From positions 1 through 64,000 of IMG/VR virus record IMGVR_UViG_3300025853_008930: a DNA stretch of 64,000 bases. One strand, written 5' to 3'. A model generated the notes under the pieces. The model had not been told where the DNA came from, ran no database searches, and saw only the letters and a program-made list of their open reading frames with translations. The position numbers were made by a program, and so were the translations under genes. Origin of the DNA: a virus. Shown here in pieces: positions 29,541 through 47,298 of this stretch (position 1 is its first letter; the number at the start of each line of letters is the position of its first letter).

Positions 29541-30878
29541 TCACTGTATGTTTGTTATCTTTCCTTGACCCTTGAAGAAGGAACATCCGACTTCACCAAT
29601 TGTTCGATACAAAGCCCTGTTACCTAGAGTTCCAACACCGAATGGGTTTCCATTGGCGATACCATCTTCAAAGTATTGTGTTGGTTTCATAACCGATAGC
29701 CACAAATGGTCTGTATCAAGGAATAGTAAATCACTTAGTTTTGTTGAAGCACTACCTGTTTGGCACATATCCTTAACAGGGATTAGTGGAATATCGTAGT
29801 ATGTTGCTACTCTAAATCCAACTTCTTGACCTTTAACTCCTCTAACACCGTTTACAGTTGGCACGACTTCTTTTCTGTCCATGAATCTTTCTTGGCTTTG
29901 TAGTAAGTCAGCAAGTGCTTGAATAGTATCATAACCTGTTAGAATAACCTTTGGAGAACCACCGGCTAGTCTTAGGTTTCTAATCATATCATTTAGTCTT
30001 GTTAGAGTTAGTGAACGAACATCTCCTGCCGCATATCCACTACCAAAGTCTACTTCTGCATCAAGGAAAGATGCCGCAGTAAATCTCTCACTACCGTAAA
30101 TCTTTCCTAGAGCGTTAGAAGCGGAAGTTGTATCAGTAGCGATAACTCCACCGTCAATTGCTAGTAGTTCTGCTCTTGAGGTAATAACCTTGTTTAGAGA
30201 AGTATAGTTGTTTCCGATATTTGGCATAGCGGATGATTCACCATAATGCTCTAGTGGCATAACCAACATTTTGTTTTGAACTTCAGCGTGATGCTTACCC
30301 ATATCTTCACGCATTTGCGCTCTAATATCGCCAATACCATCATCAATTTGTGCCATTTCCATAGCAAGTTCACTGAAATCAAATTGATGTGCAACTACTT
30401 TAGGACTCATGTTGAGTTGTGCATAAGTTGGTGCAATTGGGCCAAGTCCATCTTGTGCTGTTGAAAGTCCTGCATTTTCAGGAACACCACCAATCATATC
30501 TGCTCTTGGGCTATCCGAACCTAGTTCTGCTAAGTTTTCTGTTCCGCTTGCATCAACAGTAAACAAGTTACCGCTTCCACCGGCAGGTCGTGACTTTAGA
30601 ACTCTCCAACCACTAGAAGAATATGGCCTCTTTGAAATCATTGAAAGAGCATTAACTTCTCTATTCAACATTGACCATACTTTCTGTCCGTAAACAATGT
30701 TGTAAAGTGCTGATACATCACTAACAGCACTACCGGAGAATGATGGAGAACCATCATGTCCTGTGTGTATTCCACCAATAGCACCGGCTTGCTTCAAAAG
30801 AGCGTTACCGGCAGGTAGATTGTTTATTCCATATGTGCTTGCTTCTAAATCTGCGATTGTGTTAATATAACCTGTCAT
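29541..30878 (-). CDS. Major capsid protein (HK97 fold)
   Basis: 445 aa directly after protease/scaffold; resembles archaeal tailed-virus MCPs; highly biased codon usage. Confidence 0.85.
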   Translation of the reverse strand: MTGYINTIADLEASTYGINNLPAGNALLKQAGAIGGIHTGHDGSPSFSGSAVSDVSALYNIVYGQKVWSMLNREVNALSMISKRPYSSSGWRVLKSRPAGGSGNLFTVDASGTENLAELGSDSPRADMIGGVPENAGLSTAQDGLGPIAPTYAQLNMSPKVVAHQFDFSELAMEMAQIDDGIGDIRAQMREDMGKHHAEVQNKMLVMPLEHYGESSAMPNIGNNYTSLNKVITSRAELLAIDGGVIATDTTSASNALGKIYGSERFTAASFLDAEVDFGSGYAAGDVRSLTLTRLNDMIRNLRLAGGSPKVILTGYDTIQALADLLQSQERFMDRKEVVPTVNGVRGVKGQEVGFRVATYYDIPLIPVKDMCQTGSASTKLSDLLFLDTDHLWLSVMKPTQYFEDGIANGNPFGVGTLGNRALYRTIGEVGCSFFKGQGKITNIQ

Positions 30879-30879
30879 C

Positions 30880-32112
30880 TTAAATTCCTCCTACCATTTT
30901 GTGAATGTCCGACCAATCCATTTCAGCCATCTCATCCATACTTGGGAGTTTAATTGCGGATTCTTCTTGAGCCTTTAGGATAGTTTCCTTTTCTGCTGTC
31001 AAAGATTTCCTTAGTTGTGTAAATTCATCTTTAAGAGAAGCAATCTCGCTTTGTGCATCATAGTTTTGCTTTGCGATAACATTCTCTCTTGTTGAAACTT
31101 CTCTTGCGAATCTTGCTTCAAAAGACTTCTTTAGGTTGTCATAAGCAAGTGATTCAAGTTGTTCTTGTCGGAAAGCCTCATATGCTTTCTCAATGTTTCC
31201 AACTGACAAATCAAGAGTATCAAATTCTCCATTGTTAAATGCCTTTACAACAGGCATGTCGGATGAAGTTGGCTTACCGTTGTTAATAACAATACGGTCA
31301 GCAGGTTCTCCAATTTGGTTTCCTGCACCATCAAGAGTTCTCAAGTAAGCCTTTGCTTCTTCATCTTGGTATTCTCCCATTCCCTTCTCATCTTCTGCAT
31401 CCATGTCTTCTTCATCTTCTTTGTCCATGCCGTAGTCTCCTCTCTCCATGTCATCATCAGCCATTTCTGTTTCTTTCATACCCTTTTCATCAAGAGCCTC
31501 TTCTTCTTTACGAAGCGTATTTACTTCTTCTAGCAAAGTGTCTAGTTCTGCTAGGGCTTTTTCCAGTTTATCACTCATATTATTGTCTCCTTTATCTTGT
31601 TTCAAAATATCGAATCTCGCTTCGGGGTTAATTCCTTTTTCGCATATAGTAATTTCATGCAATTCTAACTTGCTGATTTCATTATACTCACCCAAGTTTT
31701 CATTACTTTTCTTTACTTTTTGGAGGGCTTGACCTCCTATGCTAAAAGACCTTAATGACCCTTTGCGAATGTTTCTGCCAACTTCTTTGGCTTTTTCTAT
31801 ATCATCTCGTAGTTTAATTACTACAAAGAAACCAACATCATCTACTTCAGATTTCCAAAGTCTACCTGTGCTGTCTCTATAAGAATCCACAACTTCTCCA
31901 ACTTGAACATTGGAATGGTTTGTCATGACATTTCTAAATTTAGAATCTTTCATGAACTTAACAACTGCTTCTTTCAAAGCAGATAGTGTAATTAAATCAT
32001 TTTGCTTATCAACAATTTCAATGCTAGCATAGCCGCCAATCATTAAGTCGTCACTTCTAGCCTTAAGGATGGTAAACCCATCATTCCTAGTTGCTAGAAC
32101 TGCCGATGCCAT
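30880..32112 (-). CDS. Prohead protease (HK97 family) fused to scaffold
   Basis: IGGYAS..VDKQND, H (MTNHS), SFSIGG and LHEITICEKGINPEA motifs; acidic coiled-coil C-terminal half. Confidence 0.85.
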   Translation of the reverse strand: MASAVLATRNDGFTILKARSDDLMIGGYASIEIVDKQNDLITLSALKEAVVKFMKDSKFRNVMTNHSNVQVGEVVDSYRDSTGRLWKSEVDDVGFFVVIKLRDDIEKAKEVGRNIRKGSLRSFSIGGQALQKVKKSNENLGEYNEISKLELHEITICEKGINPEARFDILKQDKGDNNMSDKLEKALAELDTLLEEVNTLRKEEEALDEKGMKETEMADDDMERGDYGMDKEDEEDMDAEDEKGMGEYQDEEAKAYLRTLDGAGNQIGEPADRIVINNGKPTSSDMPVVKAFNNGEFDTLDLSVGNIEKAYEAFRQEQLESLAYDNLKKSFEARFAREVSTRENVIAKQNYDAQSEIASLKDEFTQLRKSLTAEKETILKAQEESAIKLPSMDEMAEMDWSDIHKMVGGI

Positions 32113-32171
32113 TTCGCTCAAAGGGAAAAAATTTCCTTTTAATATATAATACACACGGTTATTTTAAACAA

Positions 32172-34721
32172 TTAATCCTCTTTTGGAGGTAATTCAAGAC
32201 TACTATATTTATCTTCATAAATATTCCATAATCCTTTATCAGCATCAGTATCAGCAGGTTTTTGTTCATAGCCTGTCCATGCTAGCCACATTTTCTTTCC
32301 TTTAACTTCAAGCATTCTAACATGAAGTTTAGTTTCAAACTTATTACCCTCTAAGAAATATTCGTGATAGCCTTCCTTTTGAACACCTAACTTAACATCA
32401 CCACTATCAATCAATTTACGCTTGGATATGTTCTTAGCAACAATAGCAGGGAACTTCCCTGCCTTGCCAAATAGTTCAAAGACATCATCTTGTGAATCTA
32501 ATCTAACCATCCAATTAATGCTTTCATCACCTAACTTCATTACTATGTTTAGGCTATCGTCGTCTCTAAGATATATTTTAAACTCGCCACTTCTGTATTT
32601 TTCAGGTGTCTCATATTCTTTCTTGATAGTGTCCATTAATATCTTATCATGCTCGGCAAACAACTTTTTTGTTTTAGCATCAAAGGATATTCCATCTCTA
32701 TTTTCAAACCAATCCTTAACTCTACTTTCTTTGCTTTCTAATATATCTTGATATTCTTTTTTATTATTCTTTACCAAAAAGTTGTGAACTTCTTTAGGAG
32801 TCTTTGCTCCTTTCTCTTTCAAGTAATTAAATATAGCAACAGTAAGTTTAGATTGTTTCGTTTTCATTATCTCTTCTGCTTGTTCTTTCCACAAGTCTAA
32901 ATCCATTAAGGCATTTTTAGCCATTAGATTATCTTGCTCAAAGCCATAGATAGTAAAACCATCCATATCGCTCTTAATTATAATGCTAGCCTCACCGTGA
33001 ATATGGTCAGTAATTACAATGCCTTTCTCTACTTCTTCTACATTATATTTGAGAGACTTGTCAGTATCATTGATTAGCATTTGTAATGTAACTAATTTAT
33101 CCGGTGTTTTACTTTCTGCAATCTCAGTTATCTTTGCGGAATAAACTACAGGCTTACCCTTGACTTCTTTTACCTTATCAATAGAGACTCTAACTACTTC
33201 TCCAACATCTGCTGAAACTTTAGTGTTAGTAGCACTACCAACTTCAAGATAGTTTACTCCTTCTATCTTTTCATCTCCTTCTTCAACCGGCCCTGCCCCT
33301 AATTTGTAAGAAAAGTTAGAACCGTTTTTCTTTTTATCAAGAACAATTAAATCTAGTTCTACAAATGGTTTCCAACGAATCCACTTAGGATTCTTTTTCG
33401 TTCCCAAGAAATATGTAGATGTAGAATCTTTAATCATAGCCCCTTCTGCTGTTGGTATTTCCATAATTTTCTTAGCATATTCTTCAACATCTTTTAGGCT
33501 GTCTGCAACCCTAGTATCTTTTTTAGATGGGAATGTTAAGTCCTCACTAGAATGTATAGAATAGTTGTTAAACATTATTTGCATTCTATTTTGTAGCGTA
33601 TCTTCCATGAGGTTTTCTTCATTGTGTCTCATAATGTCAAACACATGAATTCTAACCTTGCCTTCTCTTTTTCCCTCTAAGTATTCTGCGGCTTCTTTTC
33701 TTTTAAGAGAATCTTCTCCGTCAAATAAAACTAAAGAAGCATCTAAGATACAATCACCAAAATGTTTTTTCTTTAGTTCCTCAACTGCTTCTTTACACTT
33801 TGATGTAATGTCTTTTCCTGTATAATCATAGACTTTTATATTCTTATCTATTTTATGTAATTGAATTCTAAAACCATCGTATTTTTCTTGAACATAAAAC
33901 TCACCACTAAATCCCTTTAGTTCGTTCATATCTTCTATTGTAAATATTCTATACATTGGTTTGTTAGGGATTATGAAATCACTTTGGGCTTTTTCTTCAT
34001 CGGACTTCTTTTCTTTTAGAATAACTTTATCGTCTTGTTCCTTATCTTTAGTGGCTTTTTCTTCATCCATATCTGTATCTATGTCTTCTAATTCAGCCCA
34101 CTCTTCTTTAGTGTTTTTAGATAAGAATATTAATTCTAACATATTCATAGCGGCTTTTACTTTAGCCTCTACTTTTTTAGAGTCTTTACCATCACCATAA
34201 TGTTCTATAATGTAAAGTGCAACATCATCTACTTCTAGGTCTAATCCCATAAGTCCTTCTGTGATGTCATCCGGTTTCATATCTTTAATTGAATATGCTT
34301 CTTTTGGTAGTGCTTTATCATCTTCTCTAATAGCATAATGAACAAACTTAATCATAAGTTCGGGTGATTCTAATAATGCTTCTAATACATTGCCTTTGAA
34401 TTTTTTAGCGAAGGGGTCACTAACTTCTTCCGAAGAATACCTAAGTGCCTTTATTGCTTCATACAATTTTTCAGCATTATTTGTGCTAACATCGGAGACA
34501 TCATCCGCCTCTAATAAGTCATCATCAATATAATCCTTGAGTTCATTTGAAAGAGCATCCGTCATTTCATATGCGTCTTTAATTCTATTTACTGCGTTTC
34601 TCCATTTAGAACCGTATTCCTTTGGGTCGGTTCTTGCTGAAAGATAAGCGACTCTCGTTCTTTCAAAGAGTCTTAGAATATCTGTGGATATTGACTTATC
34701 CTTCTCAATAAGGAGAGGCAT
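32172..34721 (-). CDS. ATP-dependent DNA ligase with N- and C-terminal extensions
   Basis: EKYDG (motif I), FDIM, EGAMIK, WIRWKP, OB fold. Confidence 0.85.
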   Translation of the reverse strand: MPLLIEKDKSISTDILRLFERTRVAYLSARTDPKEYGSKWRNAVNRIKDAYEMTDALSNELKDYIDDDLLEADDVSDVSTNNAEKLYEAIKALRYSSEEVSDPFAKKFKGNVLEALLESPELMIKFVHYAIREDDKALPKEAYSIKDMKPDDITEGLMGLDLEVDDVALYIIEHYGDGKDSKKVEAKVKAAMNMLELIFLSKNTKEEWAELEDIDTDMDEEKATKDKEQDDKVILKEKKSDEEKAQSDFIIPNKPMYRIFTIEDMNELKGFSGEFYVQEKYDGFRIQLHKIDKNIKVYDYTGKDITSKCKEAVEELKKKHFGDCILDASLVLFDGEDSLKRKEAAEYLEGKREGKVRIHVFDIMRHNEENLMEDTLQNRMQIMFNNYSIHSSEDLTFPSKKDTRVADSLKDVEEYAKKIMEIPTAEGAMIKDSTSTYFLGTKKNPKWIRWKPFVELDLIVLDKKKNGSNFSYKLGAGPVEEGDEKIEGVNYLEVGSATNTKVSADVGEVVRVSIDKVKEVKGKPVVYSAKITEIAESKTPDKLVTLQMLINDTDKSLKYNVEEVEKGIVITDHIHGEASIIIKSDMDGFTIYGFEQDNLMAKNALMDLDLWKEQAEEIMKTKQSKLTVAIFNYLKEKGAKTPKEVHNFLVKNNKKEYQDILESKESRVKDWFENRDGISFDAKTKKLFAEHDKILMDTIKKEYETPEKYRSGEFKIYLRDDDSLNIVMKLGDESINWMVRLDSQDDVFELFGKAGKFPAIVAKNISKRKLIDSGDVKLGVQKEGYHEYFLEGNKFETKLHVRMLEVKGKKMWLAWTGYEQKPADTDADKGLWNIYEDKYSSLELPPKED

Positions 34722-34727
34722 GTGGCA

Positions 34728-35246
34728 TCACTTTGTTATTGGCCCAACTCTATCTTTTTTGAGTCTTGGACTTGTTGGAGGAATGACTTTTATTTTTTCA
34801 ATAATATATCTTTCCGAACTACCATCTGCTGACTTGGCTATAATCTGTAATTTTGCATCAGCAATAAAACTAGGATTAGATGAGGAAGAAGATTCTTGTT
34901 TTACATCACCAAATCGGTTAGCAAGGGTTTCCGTAAGTTTATCCATAGAAAATGTTTTACCAATCAAGGATTTTCCAACTAATTGTAAACCCCCCTCATC
35001 TTGTTTCTTCAAACTCTCACCTGCTAAACCATAGCCTTCTTTCTTTTGAGTTTGATTAGTAATCTTAGAAGCGTCTTGCACCTTTGGCCTCTTAATCTTC
35101 TCAACTTCGGGGTCTGTATCTATTTCCAATACTTGAGTTGGCTCAATGTTCTTTCTTTGTTTTGCGCTTAATTCTTCCTTAGCCTTTCTTGCTTTTTCGA
35201 TAGCAAGACTAATTATTCTTTCTTCTTTTGTTACTCTTTCCGGCAC
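34728..35246 (-). CDS. Hypothetical head-module protein
   Basis: Coupled ORF. Confidence 0.55.
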   Translation of the reverse strand: MPERVTKEERIISLAIEKARKAKEELSAKQRKNIEPTQVLEIDTDPEVEKIKRPKVQDASKITNQTQKKEGYGLAGESLKKQDEGGLQLVGKSLIGKTFSMDKLTETLANRFGDVKQESSSSSNPSFIADAKLQIIAKSADGSSERYIIEKIKVIPPTSPRLKKDRVGPITK

Positions 35247-35494
35247 TACTGACCACCTACATTTTCTACCATCTTATGAATGTCTTTCCATTCCATGTTT
35301 CCTACATCCTTTAATGGAGAACCACCAATGGTTCCGTTATTCATCTTAGGAGTCGGACTATCAACAACAACAAAGCCGGACTTCATTAGTAAGTTATCGT
35401 CATTGTAAACTGCTTTCTCTAAACTTTCTATCTTAGCACTAAGGGCTTTAATAATCTCAAGTAGTTCTTGATTAATTGTATTTTCTTCACTCAT
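35246..35494 (-). CDS. Small coiled-coil protein ending in scaffold-like WKDIHKMV motif
   Basis: C-terminus MEWKDIHKMVENVGGQ versus scaffold MDWSDIHKMVGGI. Confidence 0.65.
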   Translation of the reverse strand: MSEENTINQELLEIIKALSAKIESLEKAVYNDDNLLMKSGFVVVDSPTPKMNNGTIGGSPLKDVGNMEWKDIHKMVENVGGQ

Positions 35495-35499
35495 ATTTA

Positions 35500-35688
35500 T
35501 CACTTCATTTTATCCGCTAGGACAAACGGTGGACTCCCGTTATACACAAGAACCTTCTCACGGTTCTTATTAAAAATATATCCTATTGCGTATATTGCCT
35601 TTCCAGTATCCAAGTCTTTTCTTTCTCTCACAACTATTCTCTTAGTGTATAGAGGCAAGTCTTCTTTAATTATATTTTTCCAACTCAT
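35500..35688 (-). CDS. WxxILK-leader protein
   Basis: MSWKNIIKE. Confidence 0.6.
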   Translation of the reverse strand: MSWKNIIKEDLPLYTKRIVVRERKDLDTGKAIYAIGYIFNKNREKVLVYNGSPPFVLADKMK

Positions 35689-39430: not shown

Positions 39431-39658
39431 TCAAAATGGAATATTCTCTTTCTTACCTCTCCTCTTTTGTGGGGGTAAGATAACATCGGGAACATCATTA
39501 GATGCTCTTATTGCTTTATGAGTTGTATCCGGTGGTAGTCCACCAACAGAAAAATCACGATTCTTCGTGGTCTTTCTAGTATCATTTGCATTCTGTGTTC
39601 TAACTTTCGCTAATTCTTTCTTTAGTCTAATCTCTTTCTGTCTATTATCTTCTGTCAT
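39431..39658 (-). CDS. Hypothetical protein
   Basis: Coupled to the portal stop. Confidence 0.55.
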   Translation of the reverse strand: MTEDNRQKEIRLKKELAKVRTQNANDTRKTTKNRDFSVGGLPPDTTHKAIRASNDVPDVILPPQKRRGKKENIPF

Positions 39659-41304
39659 TAACCTGTCCTCCTTTCACTCCTTCTATCTACATTTTGATTA
39701 CCTGCGTCTTCCGGTAATCCGCTTAATCTTTTATCCGGCCCAACACTCATAGAAGGTTTATTTCTAGTAGCCGGTGGATTTTCTTGTGGCTTACTACCGC
39801 CACCTTCTGCAAACATTCTTGTTTGTTCATCTAAATCTCTTTGGTCTAAATTAGAACCTGCTAGTGGGTCTTTTTCTATGGGTCTTCCATCATCATCCAT
39901 TTGTTGTTCATCTTCTTTTGGTTCGGGTTTCTTGTAAGTAAAGTTACCATCCTCATCCATATCAACTTCAAAGCCTAAGTTCTTTATTGATGCCGCAATA
40001 TTGACTTCAATCTCTTTCTTTCTTAGTCCTGCAATCTCATCTTCTTCTTCGCTAGGAGGCAACTTCAACTTCCAATCTGTAATGCCAAATTGCTTTACAA
40101 GATAAGGAAATACATATTCATTGTAAACATTCTGTGCCATTTGAACTGCTCTATTAGTTACAAGTATTTGCATACCTTCATTGTTTAAGCCGCCACTTGT
40201 AGTATTATCAGCCATGAAGACTTTACTGACACCATAGAACGCTGATATTCTATCTCTCAAATCATCCTTAACAGAAATATAATCCATTTCTTTTAGGCTA
40301 TCCATGAACTTAATCCACTCAACAGCACCTTTACCGCCTTCTGCTTCTATACCCATAACAGGAATAAAGTGCGGGTCTGCCTCCATCTTTTCTTTTACTC
40401 CTCTCCAAAAGGCTCTCATTGAATCCATGTTTCTAGTTTGAACCGCTAACAAACCTCTTGGCATTCTGCTCTTAGTATAGGCTGAATTGACATAGTTCTC
40501 CATAGCAATTAAAGTCATGATATGATTGTAAAGTGTAATTACAGGGGAAAAACCGTAAAGTCTTGAAGGACTATACTTACTAAAATGTAATACTTCTCCT
40601 TCGATGAAATACTGTTCATCACCTTTTGCTCGATTGACATAATGAATAGGCATAAGAGGAGAGCCACAAGTTTCACAACTATCGTGTGGTTCTGTTGAAA
40701 TAATATCTCTATGATGAACACAAGTAAATCCTTTGTTACCCTTTACGCCATCTTCATCGGCATAAATAAACATAGTAACAGGGTCGCCACGATACACTTC
40801 CTTAACACGGTGCATTCTAATTTTACCATTACCATCCAAGAAATATTCTTTGACCATAACTATGTATGCGTCATCCATAATATTCAAATCGTCTTCCAAT
40901 TCCTTCAACACATCAATAAATAATTGCTCGGATGAGTTTACATAACCCTCTAAGAACTTTTCAGCATATTCTAATTGCTTAACATCGGGTATTTTTAAAT
41001 CAGTAGAGCCACATCTTGAACACTCTTGAACAGGTCTTGTGTGGGTTTTTCCGCAATTGTTACACTTTGCTTCAAATGCTTTTTCCCAAACATAGCCTCT
41101 TCTGTAGACTTCCTGCTTTAGTTGAGTTATACAAGTTCTAACAATTACTGATTGTTGAACCATAGAATAGATGATGGGGGCTGTCATCATGTAATTGTTC
41201 TGCCTTTCTTGAATACCCATGTTGTAGATATTCCTGTCAGCAGGTTTCGGAGTAGTGCGCCTGAAAAGATTAGTGAAAGAGAACCGCCTTCTTTTTTCTG
41301 CCAC
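39658..41304 (-). CDS. Portal protein with zinc-ribbon insertions
   Basis: YGFSP, RISAFYGVS and VFPYLVKQF portal-like motifs; size and position. Confidence 0.8.
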   Translation of the reverse strand: MAEKRRRFSFTNLFRRTTPKPADRNIYNMGIQERQNNYMMTAPIIYSMVQQSVIVRTCITQLKQEVYRRGYVWEKAFEAKCNNCGKTHTRPVQECSRCGSTDLKIPDVKQLEYAEKFLEGYVNSSEQLFIDVLKELEDDLNIMDDAYIVMVKEYFLDGNGKIRMHRVKEVYRGDPVTMFIYADEDGVKGNKGFTCVHHRDIISTEPHDSCETCGSPLMPIHYVNRAKGDEQYFIEGEVLHFSKYSPSRLYGFSPVITLYNHIMTLIAMENYVNSAYTKSRMPRGLLAVQTRNMDSMRAFWRGVKEKMEADPHFIPVMGIEAEGGKGAVEWIKFMDSLKEMDYISVKDDLRDRISAFYGVSKVFMADNTTSGGLNNEGMQILVTNRAVQMAQNVYNEYVFPYLVKQFGITDWKLKLPPSEEEDEIAGLRKKEIEVNIAASIKNLGFEVDMDEDGNFTYKKPEPKEDEQQMDDDGRPIEKDPLAGSNLDQRDLDEQTRMFAEGGGSKPQENPPATRNKPSMSVGPDKRLSGLPEDAGNQNVDRRSERRTG

Positions 41305-41341: not shown

Positions 41342-41575
41342 TTATAGAATCTTCGCAAAGGCTTTCCTCAATACATTTCTCCAATTACCTTTTTTTCTAC
41401 CATAATTTTTTGTTTCGTATTGTTTAGGATTTTTATTTGCATAAAGAGCCGCCATGTATTTTTTTGCCCTAGATTTGGACAAAGGGGTTTTATTTTTGGC
41501 CTTACCTGTATCGGTATTAATAACATAGTAGCCGTTTTTTCCGACTCTTAATTCATAAGGCAAGGCATTCACCAC
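41342..41575 (-). CDS. Small basic protein with C-terminal WRNVLRK motif
   Basis: Coupled ORF. Confidence 0.55.
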   Translation of the reverse strand: MVNALPYELRVGKNGYYVINTDTGKAKNKTPLSKSRAKKYMAALYANKNPKQYETKNYGRKKGNWRNVLRKAFAKIL

Positions 41576-41856
41576 AACTTCTTACATGCTAGACATTTAG
41601 GTGTTGTGATTCTACCTTTGCATTGGTCACAATTATGTCTTGCTTTAAAATTAGCCCTACGCTTTTTGTTGGTATGAGTTCCACCGCCCCTATTCTTTCC
41701 TTTGCCTTTGTAATTGCCATATCCTTTAGCACCTGCATGAATCTTTTTTCCTTCATGAGTAAGCATCATAATTTTTTTACCTTCTCTATCGGAAGGATAT
41801 ACACGACCTACTCGCATGTCTTTCTTATCTTTTTTACACACATCGAACCAAGTCAT
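41569..41856 (-). CDS. Basic protein with leader variant MTWFDVCKK
   Basis: KIHAGAKGY...RRANFKARH...W. Confidence 0.6.
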   Translation of the reverse strand: MTWFDVCKKDKKDMRVGRVYPSDREGKKIMMLTHEGKKIHAGAKGYGNYKGKGKNRGGGTHTNKKRRANFKARHNCDQCKGRITTPKCLACKKLW

Positions 41857-42257
41857 TGCTTACCCCTCATTTGATTTTCTTTAGAACGCTTATCGTCTTT
41901 TATCGGGCCGCCTTTAGCCCATGTTCTACAAGACCTAGCCGAATGACATTTAAAATGGTGCATCCAACAATAACCTAATTTACCATCATCATCTAATTCT
42001 AACGGCATACATTTTTCCATTCTAGGACTAATATCAAACGCTACACAATTACCGCAGTTAGAATCCATAGCGGCTTCTACTGATGTATTCCAAAAGTCTG
42101 CAATATCTTCCCAATAATCTTCGGGCTTGTCTATATTAAGTGGGCCATATTGTATATGTTCTGCTTTTATGGCGGCATTTCTATTCTTAGTGTTTAACTT
42201 CAAATCCTGTGTTGCTCTAGGACAAGTAAGTTCCTTTAGAATAATATGCCAACTCAT
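41853..42257 (-). CDS. WxxILK-leader Cys/His-rich protein
   Basis: MSWHIILKE; CGNC...YCWMHHFKCHSARSC. Confidence 0.65.
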   Translation of the reverse strand: MSWHIILKELTCPRATQDLKLNTKNRNAAIKAEHIQYGPLNIDKPEDYWEDIADFWNTSVEAAMDSNCGNCVAFDISPRMEKCMPLELDDDGKLGYCWMHHFKCHSARSCRTWAKGGPIKDDKRSKENQMRGKQ

Positions 42258-42261
42258 AATA

Positions 42262-42678
42262 TCATCTCGGACTATGTGTGTAAATATCTCCATCTTTGTG
42301 CATGAATATTTTACCTTCTTTTTCTAATTTCTTCAAGGCCGCTTTAATCTCGGTTTCCTTTCCAAATTGTTTTAGGTTTTTCATTCCTAATGCTCCGCCC
42401 TCTTTCTTAATTTCTCTTAAGATTTGACGCTCTAATTTTGCTGTCTTCATTCTAGGACTAATGTTCATAAAGTCTGTCATTTCTTCGGGGTCTTTACCAA
42501 AAATAGATTTCTTAACCTTTCTTCGTTTAAGTTCATCAAAATCTGCACCTGTTATTTTTCCTTTCGGTTTAGCCACATCTAATTTTTTTTGCCCACCATA
42601 AAGCATCTTTTCATCTTCTTTATGAGTTCCACAATGGGCTTTCTCATCTTCTGTTTTTAGTATGTCTTTCCAACTCAT
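42262..42678 (-). CDS. WxxILK-leader protein with winged-helix-like C-terminus
   Basis: MSWKDILKT; ALKKLEKEGKIF. Confidence 0.6.
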   Translation of the reverse strand: MSWKDILKTEDEKAHCGTHKEDEKMLYGGQKKLDVAKPKGKITGADFDELKRRKVKKSIFGKDPEEMTDFMNISPRMKTAKLERQILREIKKEGGALGMKNLKQFGKETEIKAALKKLEKEGKIFMHKDGDIYTHSPR

Positions 42679-43025
42679 CTTGTAAATCCCCTGCCTCTAC
42701 TTTTTGTTTTTTCTTTACTCGCTTCCTTTCTTTGCTTGGCGTAAGTGTGTGCCGCTTTTAGCCTTTTCTTTACTTTACGGTCTTTAGCATTTTTAACTGC
42801 GGCTCGTAATCTTTGCTCCACTAAATTGATTATTTGTGATTGTCTTTTATGAGACTTAGATTTGAATGCACTACTACTAAATGTTTCTTGAACATCTTTA
42901 ACGGTTCTAAATTTTACAGGAACAGTATCTTTTGGGTTTTCATCTGTGTATAATCTTCTTGCTGAACCTTTTGGTTTTTTACCCGTTCCTTTTTTCGGGT
43001 CAGCCTTCAAGATATTCTGCCACAT
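42675..43025 (-). CDS. WxxILK-leader basic protein
   Basis: MWQNILKA. Confidence 0.6.
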   Translation of the reverse strand: MWQNILKADPKKGTGKKPKGSARRLYTDENPKDTVPVKFRTVKDVQETFSSSAFKSKSHKRQSQIINLVEQRLRAAVKNAKDRKVKKRLKAAHTYAKQRKEASKEKTKSRGRGFTR

Positions 43026-43336
43026 TATGCTCCCTTCCTCCTTTTGTAAGTTTTACAAGCGGCACAAGTTGGCCTACATCTTTGTTTAGTTCCTTTAGAA
43101 GCATCCGGTCTTCCGCAAGGTTTTGTTCCTTTTTTATCATCTTCACATGATTGACAAGAAACCCAACCTTTTGCTTTACCACTACCGCCTCTTCTTTGAA
43201 ACCATCCATGAAGACCGGACTCTTTTTCTCTCTTGAAATTGTCTCCGCCCTTTCTTCTTTGTTTCTTCTTATATCTTTTAGCACCGCTTCTTCTTCGAGC
43301 CTTGCTCTTTTTTTGAAGAATGTCCTGCCATGTCAT
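43025..43336 (-). CDS. WxxILK-leader basic Cys-containing protein
   Basis: MTWQDILQKK. Confidence 0.6.
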   Translation of the reverse strand: MTWQDILQKKSKARRRSGAKRYKKKQRRKGGDNFKREKESGLHGWFQRRGGSGKAKGWVSCQSCEDDKKGTKPCGRPDASKGTKQRCRPTCAACKTYKRRKGA

Positions 43337-43341
43337 ATTAA

Positions 43342-43572
43342 TCACTTCTTAGATTTGTTGCCCCAATTATCCGCACCAACTTTACGACATCTAACTAAAG
43401 CACCGCTAGCATAAGCGGAAGGCCACTTATCATATCTGCTACGAACTTTGTAATAACAAGCATCTTGTTTTTTATCGGACTTACGATTTCTGCGGCCTTT
43501 TTTCTTAGCCCGCTTAGAACCTTTTTTTCTTCGAGACTTACTCTTTTTTTGAAGAATATCTTGCCAACTCAT
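43342..43572 (-). CDS. WxxILK-leader basic protein
   Basis: MSWQDILQKK; DACYYKV..RY..WPSAYASG. Confidence 0.6.
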   Translation of the reverse strand: MSWQDILQKKSKSRRKKGSKRAKKKGRRNRKSDKKQDACYYKVRSRYDKWPSAYASGALVRCRKVGADNWGNKSKK

Positions 43573-45076: not shown

Positions 45077-46507
45077 CTAAAAGTTAATTCCCATGACTCC
45101 TTGAGAGCGTTTATACTTATTGACCTTTGGCGGGTCAAATAACCCCATGTCATCTAAGAGTATGAATGTTTCACTCATCGTATGAGTAGCGGCATTAGCC
45201 AACGCTAAACTCATAACCATGTCGTCATGCGCCCCTATTCCCTCAAACTTTCCTTTGTCTGTAATAGCAAACATAGATAATTCTTCTATTAAAGTAGAAG
45301 TAACTCGACGACTTTCTTCATTAGCGTAAGGTAATATTATCTTACCATTTTCAAAGTTCATTTGTAGACTTAGAATAATCTCTTCTTTCTTTTTCCTAGT
45401 GGTGTTAAAGTCGTGAACATTTAAATCTGTAACATTTCTAATCTCTTGTGTAAATGATTTAGCAAATGTATTTGTTTCAAACAATATTGCTTCGGGCTGA
45501 AATACTTTACCGATTAATTTCACCTTCTGTATATTCTCTCTAAACTCTACATTCTTAGAACGGTCAATATACACAATAGTTTTGTTATCATTTTCATCAA
45601 CTTCTAATACAGTAATTACATTATAATCTCCATCAGTAGAAATAGCGGGGTCAATGCCAACATAATATTTGTAGCCCTCTCTACGCATTGGTTTCAAAAC
45701 ATGGTCTTTGCTCTTTGCCGCTTCCAAATATTCGGGATTGAATAGAGAAGTTCCTGTAGATATTGGAACACACATATATTCTCTTGTAAACATTAGAGAG
45801 CCGACTTCAGCCTTTCTCGCCATAAGAGCATCATAATCCCATCTATTCGGCCATAGCGGTTCGTTAAGAGCATTAAGACAAGGATATGTTCTAAGAGTAT
45901 ATGCAGGGTTTTCAGCGAGTTGTTGGTAAATATCTGTATAACTAAATGGAGTTCCAATAACTCTTAGAGAAGCAGTATGGTGAAGTGTTGGTATCATGTC
46001 ACCATAAAACCAATCTGTAACCTTTTGAATTCCTGTCATACTAAACTCTTTCAAAGGGTCGTCAATGATAATCTCTTGAGGGTGAAGTCCACGAATCTGT
46101 GAACCGACAGAACGCTCTAAGATTTGATTACCATTAGTAAGTGTGATATTTCCAATTGCCCAACCCTTTGCCGGTTTGTATTTCTTTAACATTGGATGAT
46201 TGAATAGTTTATCTATATCTCTCATGTGAACCAAAGTCTGTTTTTGGTTAGAAGAAATGTATAGCATTTGATATGGTGGTTCTCTAAACACTAAATTCCA
46301 TACAACCCAAGCATGCATAAATACTGATTTACCGTGACCTCTTGAACAAATGATAACAGTTCTTTGTGTATCGTTCATCAAATCGTGCCACTCTTCTTGG
46401 TGCTTGGCGAACTCCCAACCTAGAACTTGCTGAAAGAAATAAGGAAATGAGTTTTTAGATAATTCCATATCCATTTGATGCTCAAAGTTAAATGCGTCTA
46501 TATCCAT
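45077..46507 (-). CDS. terL: Terminase large subunit
   Basis: SRGHGKS, IIIDD, IGTP, GIDPA and HDDMV motifs. Confidence 0.9.
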   Translation of the reverse strand: MDIDAFNFEHQMDMELSKNSFPYFFQQVLGWEFAKHQEEWHDLMNDTQRTVIICSRGHGKSVFMHAWVVWNLVFREPPYQMLYISSNQKQTLVHMRDIDKLFNHPMLKKYKPAKGWAIGNITLTNGNQILERSVGSQIRGLHPQEIIIDDPLKEFSMTGIQKVTDWFYGDMIPTLHHTASLRVIGTPFSYTDIYQQLAENPAYTLRTYPCLNALNEPLWPNRWDYDALMARKAEVGSLMFTREYMCVPISTGTSLFNPEYLEAAKSKDHVLKPMRREGYKYYVGIDPAISTDGDYNVITVLEVDENDNKTIVYIDRSKNVEFRENIQKVKLIGKVFQPEAILFETNTFAKSFTQEIRNVTDLNVHDFNTTRKKKEEIILSLQMNFENGKIILPYANEESRRVTSTLIEELSMFAITDKGKFEGIGAHDDMVMSLALANAATHTMSETFILLDDMGLFDPPKVNKYKRSQGVMGINF

Positions 46508-46515
46508 AATCCCAC

Positions 46516-47298
46516 CTACTGATATAGTTCTCTCTTTCTTCTTTGAATAATCTTATTTAGTTCTTCTTTGAGTTCCTTTCCATTTTTATATTTGGTTTCT
46601 ATTATCTCAACAATTTCACCAAATTTTCTCATAATGTCTTTATGTTCAGCACCCTCTCCCATATAAGCAACCATTTGAATTATGTCTGTTATAGCAAACC
46701 AATTCCTTCCTGTTCCTCTATCTAATTTACCTTGCATTTCATATATTGAATTTATAAAAACTTGCATCCATTCTTCCATTTCATTTAATGGAGTAAAACT
46801 TTTTTTTAATACCATCTGCCACTTTTTTATTCCATCAGCCGGTTTAATTCCCCAAGCCACATCTTTGCTCTCAACATATTCTGTTATTTTCTTAACTATA
46901 TTTTCGGGAACAGAATCAAGTAGTTCTTTACTCTTATTTTCTATTTTCCAACCTATGCCCTCACTTGCCGCTATCCATCTTGGTTCGTTTACAAATGTAG
47001 CCAGTTGGGGTTTATCGCTAGAAATTTTCTTTTCTCTATAGGGAACTAAATCAGCCATATGACCCTTTGCAGAACCTTTAATGGATTTAGTTCCACCAAT
47101 CATAATATATTCGGGATGTTCGTTCCACCCTGTAGTGGATATAGTTTTATCATTATCATCAACTCTAATAATCCACTCATTCAAATCATACCAAGAAGGA
47201 ACCTGCCCCATTCTAGCATAAGGTTCATTTGGGTTATCAGTATTCCACCTTTCTTTCATTTCTTCAAAAGAAAACACTTGGTCTAATACTCTTGGCAC
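46516..47298 (-). CDS. Possible GNAT-fold domain followed by an internal WQMVLKK motif and a helical domain
   Basis: WIIRV..TGW..MIGG..KGH..L...GWKI pattern. Confidence 0.4.
   Translation of the reverse strand: MPRVLDQVFSFEEMKERWNTDNPNEPYARMGQVPSWYDLNEWIIRVDDNDKTISTTGWNEHPEYIMIGGTKSIKGSAKGHMADLVPYREKKISSDKPQLATFVNEPRWIAASEGIGWKIENKSKELLDSVPENIVKKITEYVESKDVAWGIKPADGIKKWQMVLKKSFTPLNEMEEWMQVFINSIYEMQGKLDRGTGRNWFAITDIIQMVAYMGEGAEHKDIMRKFGEIVEIIETKYKNGKELKEELNKIIQRRKRELYQ

Follow-up and report, generated by a model that had tools for sequence, protein, structure and literature searches.

A C-terminal tail shared by the protease-scaffold and a second head-module protein of a magrovirus, and its probable role as a prohead anchor

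Two head-module proteins of a magrovirus, an ocean archaeal virus, end in the same short tail: a head maturation protease-scaffold fusion and a separately encoded protein of 82 amino acids (82 aa). The consensus of this tail is M-x-W-x-[DE]-[IV]-[HN]-x-[MLF]-[VA]. Both proteins are encoded within the window, the whole stretch of 64,000 nucleotides analysed here (positions 1 to 64,000 of IMG/VR virus record IMGVR_UViG_3300025853_008930). Comparison of the two proteins across related viruses suggests that the tail is, on balance, a C-terminal prohead anchor common to the scaffold and the small protein, and that it probably binds the major capsid protein (MCP).

The protease-scaffold and an 82-aa protein share one C-terminal tail

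The initial annotation of the window had stated that the scaffold and the protein encoded at 35246-35494 end in the same motif, and both C-termini read as claimed (Table 1). The alignment between the two proteins was limited to 17 residues (405-421 of the scaffold against 60-76 of the 82-aa protein), with 47% identity and E = 2e-4 in a single BLASTP comparison. Judged from the sequences, this likeness is not a matter of chance. The codons of the two tails differ synonymously (CAC/CAT, AAA/AAG), indicating that the similarity is selected at the protein level.

Three other explanations of the likeness were examined and rejected. Recent gene conversion between the two tails is ruled out by the synonymous differences. 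An element acting at the DNA or RNA level is ruled out as well, since the motif freely tolerates synonymous codon changes and the ATGs of the N-terminal leaders described below follow ordinary Shine-Dalgarno (SD) sites. The C-terminal G-G is not a ubiquitin- or SAMP-like end: scaffold relatives end in N-N-I, G-G-Y, R-G-I or G-G-N-L, and relatives of the small protein in K-L-E or S-M-G.

Conservation and co-variation of the two tails

Loci were fetched in three sets, 80 around scaffold homologues, 66 around a divergent homologue of the small protein and 74 around a 45%-identical scaffold, and were sorted into lineages A to D, labels assigned in this analysis. Both tails are kept in the 97 loci of the first two sets that hold both genes, and in the third set as well. 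The pair is present in four marine lineages, down to 36-45% scaffold identity. In lineage A, which is window-like, the scaffold tail reads MDWSDIHKMV and the small-protein tail M[DE]W[SK]DIHKMV; the corresponding pairs are MDWSD[IV]HRL[VIT] and MEWSEIH[DS]VV in lineage B, MSWAEIN[SN]FV and MEWKEINDMV in lineage C, and MSW[DE]EVH[QAN]LA and M[ST]WxxIH[ED]MA in lineage D.

With the tryptophan counted as position 0, the change from H to N at +4 in lineage C and that from V to A at +7 in lineage D are seen in both tail-bearing proteins. Among 50 distinct pairs, tails from the same genome agree at 5.78 of 10 columns, compared with 4.41 after shuffling, and none of 5000 shuffles reached the observed value. 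Agreement at column +7 (V/A) was 0.86 of pairs against 0.45 expected, and at column +4 (H/N) 0.98 against 0.84. Such co-variation is what a common binding partner predicts.

Six genomes (this genome, one of lineage B and four of lineage D) were searched whole with a DNA pattern for M-x-W-x-[DE]-[IV]-[HN]. Exactly two sites per genome were found on the coding strand, and the reversed-pattern control gave zero matches in the same six genomes, demonstrating that the tail class is a strict two-gene set. Within the scaffold tail, W414 is invariant and H418 nearly so across 22 sequences of 35-81% identity. The broader motif W-x-[DEN]-[IVL]-[HNE] lies in the last 30 residues of 16 of 112 diverse S78 relatives (at least 300 aa long), a rate about a hundredfold higher than the 0.0015 per 30 residues found elsewhere in the same proteins. 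A group lacking the Trp tail (P0152, with ...M-S-L-K-D-L...) is not represented in IMG/VR, where it gave four weak matches only.

Predicted carriers of the tail

The protease-scaffold matched the S78 family (PF04586) at 37.7 bits, above the family cut-off of 21, and its PHROG match was 'head maturation protease' (E = 9.5e-18); a sequence search of the PDB gave no match. Its start is more likely the ATG at 32112 (M15) than the GTG at 32154, and homologues align from near M15. In the AlphaFold2 (AF2) model, a beta-rich protease domain (residues 28-171) and an acidic disordered stretch (222-313) are accompanied by scaffold helices at 192-226, 318-363 and 367-399, followed by a short helix at 406-410 and the tail helix at 414-423.

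The scaffold part may also be made on its own. An SD-like site precedes Met193 in 71 of 77 distinct relatives, with the overlapping codons varying among K-G-D, T-G-E, N-K-V and K-E-E-D, whereas the background for such a site is 12.5% of the other internal ATGs in the window. Separate gene calls elsewhere, of 209-228 aa, begin at the equivalent of Met193. Because both the internal ribosome-binding site and Met193 are conserved, we infer a nested scaffold-only product of the lambda C/Nu3 type.

The 82-aa open reading frame (ORF) starts at the ATG at 35494, as in its homologues. These form 168 clusters, all of 45-100 aa, whose names are only generic or spurious. The family spans all four lineages, and the lineage-D versions are 20-23% identical yet align end to end. 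Its invariant residues are L36 and G40, in the segment L-L-x-K-x-G-F-V, and M67, W69, I72 and H73 in the tail. The AF2 model has helices at 3-30 and 32-38, with a predicted local distance difference test (pLDDT) score of 77-93 over the first 30 residues, then a disordered linker (39-62) and a tail helix (69-80; pLDDT about 64-69). Read from the sequence, hydrophobic residues of the first helix (I14, L18, I22, L25, V29) follow the 3-4-3-4 heptad spacing of a coiled coil. The protein found no family match in Pfam, PHROGs or the PDB; the ESM Atlas gave only unnamed viral clusters, and the best hit of its AF2 model in a Foldseek search of the PDB had E = 4.2.

Table 1. Features of the window discussed in the text
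Feature	Position	Strand	Remarks
Head maturation protease-scaffold fusion	30880..32154	minus	424 aa from GTG; Pfam Peptidase_S78 E = 2.9e-9, residues 39-185
Scaffold C-terminal tail	30883..30921	minus	M412-I424, M-D-W-S-D-I-H-K-M-V-G-G-I
Predicted nested scaffold-only ORF	30880..31578	minus	M193-I424, 232 aa, in frame, same tail
Internal Shine-Dalgarno-like AGGAG	31587..31591	minus	8 nucleotides upstream of Met193 ATG
Small tail-bearing head-module protein	35246..35494	minus	82 aa; conserved family, four lineages
Small-protein C-terminal tail	35249..35296	minus	M67-Q82, M-E-W-K-D-I-H-K-M-V-E-N-V-G-G-Q
Small-protein N-terminal helices	35381..35488	minus	residues 3-38, ending in conserved L-L-x-K-x-G-F-V; AF2
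Major capsid protein, proposed tail partner	29541..30878	minus	445 aa; PHROG 'major head protein' E = 1.7e-22
T-I-L-K, candidate cut site	32062-32073	minus	protease residues 28-31; flanks protease domain, conserved
F-D-I-L-K, candidate cut site	31600-31614	minus	protease residues 181-185; flanks protease domain, conserved
A-L-L-K, candidate cut site	30792-30803	minus	MCP residues 26-29, near N-terminus; conserved
L-L-M-K, candidate cut site	35381-35392	minus	small-protein residues 35-38, after helix; conserved
77-aa protein	41342..41575	minus	just upstream of portal gene; leader-class W-R-N-V-L-R-K at 41366-41383
260-aa protein	46516..47298	minus	upstream of large terminase; internal leader-class K-K-W-Q-M-V-L-K-K at 46804-46821, domain junction
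ATP-dependent DNA ligase	32172-34721	minus	
Portal	39658-41304	minus	PF04860
Large terminase	45077-46507	minus	

A proposed prohead anchor

We propose that the tail is a C-terminal amphipathic helix by which proteins would be held to a single partner within the prohead as it assembles, the likeliest site being the inner face or the N-arm of the MCP. Three proteins are predicted to carry it. The full-length protease-scaffold would take the protease into the shell, and a scaffold-only protein would be initiated at Met193 on the lambda C/Nu3 pattern. The 82-aa protein would co-assemble, either in the part of an auxiliary scaffold or bridging, as strut or adaptor, two capsid subunits or the shell and some other head component. 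Docked through the tail, the protease, the bulk scaffold and the small protein would all enter the procapsid. The small protein may form a dimer and may afterwards be removed, possibly through cleavage at the conserved L-L-x-K-x-G.

The extreme C-terminus of the phi29 scaffold contacts the capsid protein. The same is true of the 80alpha scaffold, and the P22 scaffold binds coat protein through its C-terminus (PMC5644958). Given that scaffold C-termini contact coat in these systems, that the magrovirus MCP lacks a delta domain and that its scaffold and protease form one fusion, docking of the tail on the inner surface of the MCP is the simplest reading. We hold it quite probable that the two tails have one common partner; a further doubt concerns whether that partner is the MCP. 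The initial annotation had taken WxDIxK to be the coat-binding helix. What stands of that proposal is a conserved, predicted-helical C-terminal module on the scaffold and on a second head-module protein, with copies that co-vary across lineages; the coat as the partner is its less secure part.

Several points weigh against such an anchor. The pLDDT of the tail is only 64-78. The co-variation statistic ignores phylogeny, so that perhaps two or three independent lineage events underlie it, and one sub-lineage (L130, L132) breaks the rule at +4, its scaffold tail having H there and its small-protein tail N. Among cultured viruses, the haloarchaeal HVTV-1 and HCTV-1/5 have the most similar protease (29% identity), and the 637-aa protease of HVTV-1, the nearest of them, lacks such a tail, so the motif does not extend to the whole of this protease clade. 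Finally, we infer the MCP as the partner by analogy, for a virus that is uncultured.

N-terminal leaders and their relation to the tails

About 22 proteins of the window begin with M(x)W-x-x-I-[LI]-K, and these leaders have only M-x-W-x-[DEN]-[IV] in common with the tails. It is conceivable that the leaders dock in the MCP pocket that would take the scaffold tail, with cargo being loaded by mimicry. We consider such mimicry unlikely; it would in any case add to the shared anchor and does not exclude it. Besides the common core, it draws support from some distant scaffold tails that are more leader-like (K-M-S-W-Q-E-L, R-M-T-W-K-E-I, K-M-T-W-Q-E-V), from the position-independence of the leader motif, as would be expected of a docking motif, and from the very basic composition of several leader-tagged proteins (29-37% K+R), as is often found in internal DNA-associated head proteins.

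Against this, leaders and tails differ at the same positions in every lineage: +4 is L or I in leaders and H or N in tails, +5 is a near-invariant K in leaders and variable in tails, and +6 and +7 are charged in leaders and hydrophobic in tails. A matrix built from the 22 leaders recovered every leader on an ORF of at least 60 aa, at 15.7-25.8 bits, and scored both tails under the 8-bit reporting cut-off, inside the range of a null from shuffled proteomes (median best score 10.3; 90th percentile 13.5). The leaders do not follow the lineage-specific changes of the tails, H to N in lineage C and V to A in lineage D. Four near-complete lineage-D genomes (88-100% complete) carry the tail pair and contain no M-x-W-x-x-[IV]-x-K leaders and only 0-2 starts of the M-W form each; strict matches to this leader pattern number 10 in this genome and 10 in a lineage-B genome. 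Conversely, the tail-class motif was never found at an N-terminus in the six genomes searched whole.

Because the matrix, the class differences, the lineage changes and the leader-less lineage-D genomes all separate the two, the tail system stands on its own, and the tail pair is probably older than the leaders and independent of them. The proposal of the initial annotation that N-terminal cargo leaders mimic the tail helix is thus weakly supported, and it is rather improbable that the leaders were derived from the tail and use the same pocket. A more elaborate version, which we hold to be quite improbable, is that a portable W-x-x-I-L-K docking tag arose from the ancestral scaffold tail, solely in lineages A-C, keeping M-x-W-x-D-I as the capsid-binding half and adding a protease-cleavable L-K. 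About 20 fast-changing proteins would then be loaded into the head via the scaffold pocket and released, with the 82-aa protein as an adaptor or competitor dividing the pockets between scaffold and cargo.

The initial annotation had also pointed to related copies of the motif at 41342-41575 and 46516-47298. Both are real, but they belong to the leader class (W-x-x-V-L-[KR]-K) and not to the tail class. In the 77-aa protein, the C-terminus G-x-W-R-x-V-L-[RK]-K-A-F-A-K-I-L is kept in five of six relatives (65-95% identity), while the sixth keeps W-R-x-V-L-R-K and has a different end. The 260-aa protein was compared with those of loci L145, L147, L148 and L149. Four relatives match its residues 1-166 only, and three of them end in K-S-W-H-L-I-L-K-R-Y before the stop. 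Beyond the motif, the window protein and that of L149 continue into a C-terminal domain of 95 aa that is nearly identical in the two, although the N-terminal domain of L149 is very different; the motif in the 260-aa protein seems to mark a joint of recombination or fusion. The leader motif thus occurs at N-termini, at C-termini and at a domain junction, as a position-independent peptide, which fits a docking role of some kind.

The F-D-I-L-K segment at the end of the protease domain was considered as a further leader-like site and rejected. It is the best non-leader match of the matrix at 12.6 bits, below the null 90th percentile (13.5); it lies inside the Pfam S78 match, and homologues that consist of the protease only stop soon after the corresponding segment.

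Between the homing endonuclease and the portal region (41569-43572, minus strand) there are six leader-tagged small genes in a row. Four of them encode extremely basic proteins (28-37% K+R), three of which are also Cys-rich, and these basic products are candidates for DNA-associated internal head proteins. Another leader-tagged gene, of 62 aa (35500-35688), lies directly upstream of the 82-aa gene and is highly variable, with 2 matches in 145 related loci.

The nearest analogue of the leaders, though not of the two tails, is the capsid targeting sequence of T4, a short N-terminal peptide common to the unrelated internal proteins IPI-III and Alt (PMC3012670, PMC9026906). Targeting in T4 is to the scaffold core and not to the coat.

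Other partners and other roles for the tail

The tail could instead bind a different prohead component, such as the portal, the protease domain or the large conserved internal protein (1125 aa in the window, 1914-2085 aa in lineage D), with the small protein as an adaptor or regulator. Gene order gives this some footing. In lineage D the small gene is close to the portal gene, two genes after it, and directly precedes a gene of 146-190 aa and a giant gene; in the window it sits among conserved, uncharacterised head-module genes of 120 and 172 aa. However, the extreme C-termini of the 80alpha and P22 scaffolds contact capsid protein, as noted above, and a tail borne by the bulk scaffold calls for a partner that is itself there in hundreds of copies. 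We therefore find such a partner distinctly improbable.

That the tail is a recognition or cleavage site of the head protease, comparable to the herpesvirus maturation (M) site close to the scaffold C-terminus, and not a binding helix, deserves hardly any credence: one of its carriers includes a protease in the same chain, [IL]-L-(x)-K is found repeatedly at conserved spots of the protease, the MCP and the small protein, and the lineage-A tail reads I-H-K, but the Lys at +5, the only candidate P1 residue, varies (Q, A, N, R, E, D, S), the conserved residues (M-2, W0, I/V+3, H/N+4 and hydrophobic +6/+7) follow helical spacing, and a cut after +5 would take off only 5-8 residues. The recurring [IL]-L-(x)-K positions outside the tail are candidate cut sites of the head protease (Table 1).

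Comparison with known assembly systems

The shared C-terminal anchor proposed here has its closest counterpart in phage 80alpha and the island SaPI1. The last 16-21 residues of the 80alpha scaffold gp46 and of SaPI1 CpmB form the same helix-and-hook on the N-arm of the capsid protein (PDB 6B0X, 6B23; Dearborn et al. 2017), and the tails of CpmB, a 72-aa dimer, and of the 80alpha scaffold are exchangeable (PMC5644958). CpmB and the 82-aa protein are alike in layout: helical at the N-terminus, then a linker, then a C-terminal helix, which alone is shared in sequence with the large scaffold. They differ in setting: CpmB belongs to a parasitic island, competes with the helper scaffold and shrinks the capsid, whereas the 82-aa gene is part of the head module of the virus itself in each of the lineages examined. 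The motifs are also unrelated in sequence, an R-I-I-K hook in 80alpha and CpmB and a W-x-D-I-H helix here. The 80alpha/CpmB case is a solved one, whereas dimerisation and binding of the 82-aa protein are proposals. By analogy, the 82-aa protein would work like CpmB without being a member of the CpmB family.

The scaffold itself resembles the coat-binding scaffolds P22 gp8, phi29 gp7 and 80alpha gp46, being encoded between portal and MCP and being elongated and mostly alpha-helical with flexible parts. In herpesviruses, UL26 and UL26.5 are a protease-scaffold and an internally initiated scaffold with one C-terminus, an arrangement that, as in lambda, brings the protease into the shell together with the scaffold. 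In lambda, the protease and scaffold genes C and Nu3 are nested, according to the passage of PMC8508860 that cites Shaw and Murialdo 1980. The magrovirus arrangement would be like both in combining a fusion with an in-frame scaffold of the same C-terminus, the internal start here being read from the conserved ribosome-binding site and Met. It is unlike both in that a third, separately encoded protein also has the tail.

A further parallel is HK97, in which, as Duda, Oh and Hendrix reportedly found in 2013, the C-terminal region of the protease gp4 is an encapsidation signal. In both cases a prohead protease of the S78 family would reach the prohead by way of its C-terminal region. The HK97 signal has as its partner a delta domain that is part of the MCP; the magrovirus MCP lacks such a domain, and it is the protease that carries the scaffold.

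Source genome and head module

The hosts of magroviruses are some of the most abundant archaea in the surface ocean. Magroviruses have never been cultured and, to our knowledge, nothing is known of the assembly of their heads. They are viruses of Marine Group II archaea, and their published hallmark is a structural module that harbours a ligase and a homing endonuclease (PMC5434244). The structural module of the window contains both, which identifies the source virus as a magrovirus. The source record is an 80.7-kb IMG/VR virus contig, estimated to be 86% complete, and all genes from about 4 to 58 kb of the window lie on the minus strand.

In the order of transcription, the head module consists of the large terminase, a LAGLIDADG endonuclease, a run of small genes, the 77-aa gene and the portal, followed by genes of 75, 1125, 120, 62, 82 and 172 aa, the DNA ligase, the protease-scaffold and the MCP. 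In lineages A and D, the protease-scaffold and 82-aa genes both fall within the interval from portal to MCP. The 120-aa and 172-aa neighbours of the 82-aa gene are nearly always present (109 and 106 matches in the loci). In lineage D, one giant gene (1914-2085 aa) lies between the small-protein region and the protease-scaffold (L166 3688-9945; L203 4227-9971); in the window, the DNA ligase and, further upstream, the 1125-aa gene occupy its space.

The MCP matched Pfam SU10_MCP at 24.3 bits, barely over the cut-off of 24.1, and NCBI names one of its homologues 'putative major capsid protein'. Its conserved N-terminus opens directly with M-[TS]-G-Y-I-N-T-I, without a delta domain.

Implications for magrovirus head assembly

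The placing of one C-terminal tail on protease, scaffold and a second small protein follows a principle already documented in lambda, in herpesviruses and in 80alpha/SaPI1. The novelty lies in the specific Trp-helix motif, in its distinction from the leader tag and in a CpmB-like protein that a group of archaeal viruses encodes for itself and conserves universally. The tail-sharing pair is not described in the magrovirus paper (PMC5434244) or in the literature searched.

Two look-alike motifs are thereby told apart, a core two-copy tail in every lineage examined and a lineage-restricted leader in many copies, and with this separation it can be asked more precisely whether the leaders serve as capsid-loading tags. 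For the tail itself, the finding yields a short, strictly conserved peptide, three predicted carriers and the residues W414, I417 and H418 for point mutants. Should the tail prove to bind the MCP, it could be used as a ready-made tag for loading foreign proteins into shells derived from archaeal viruses.

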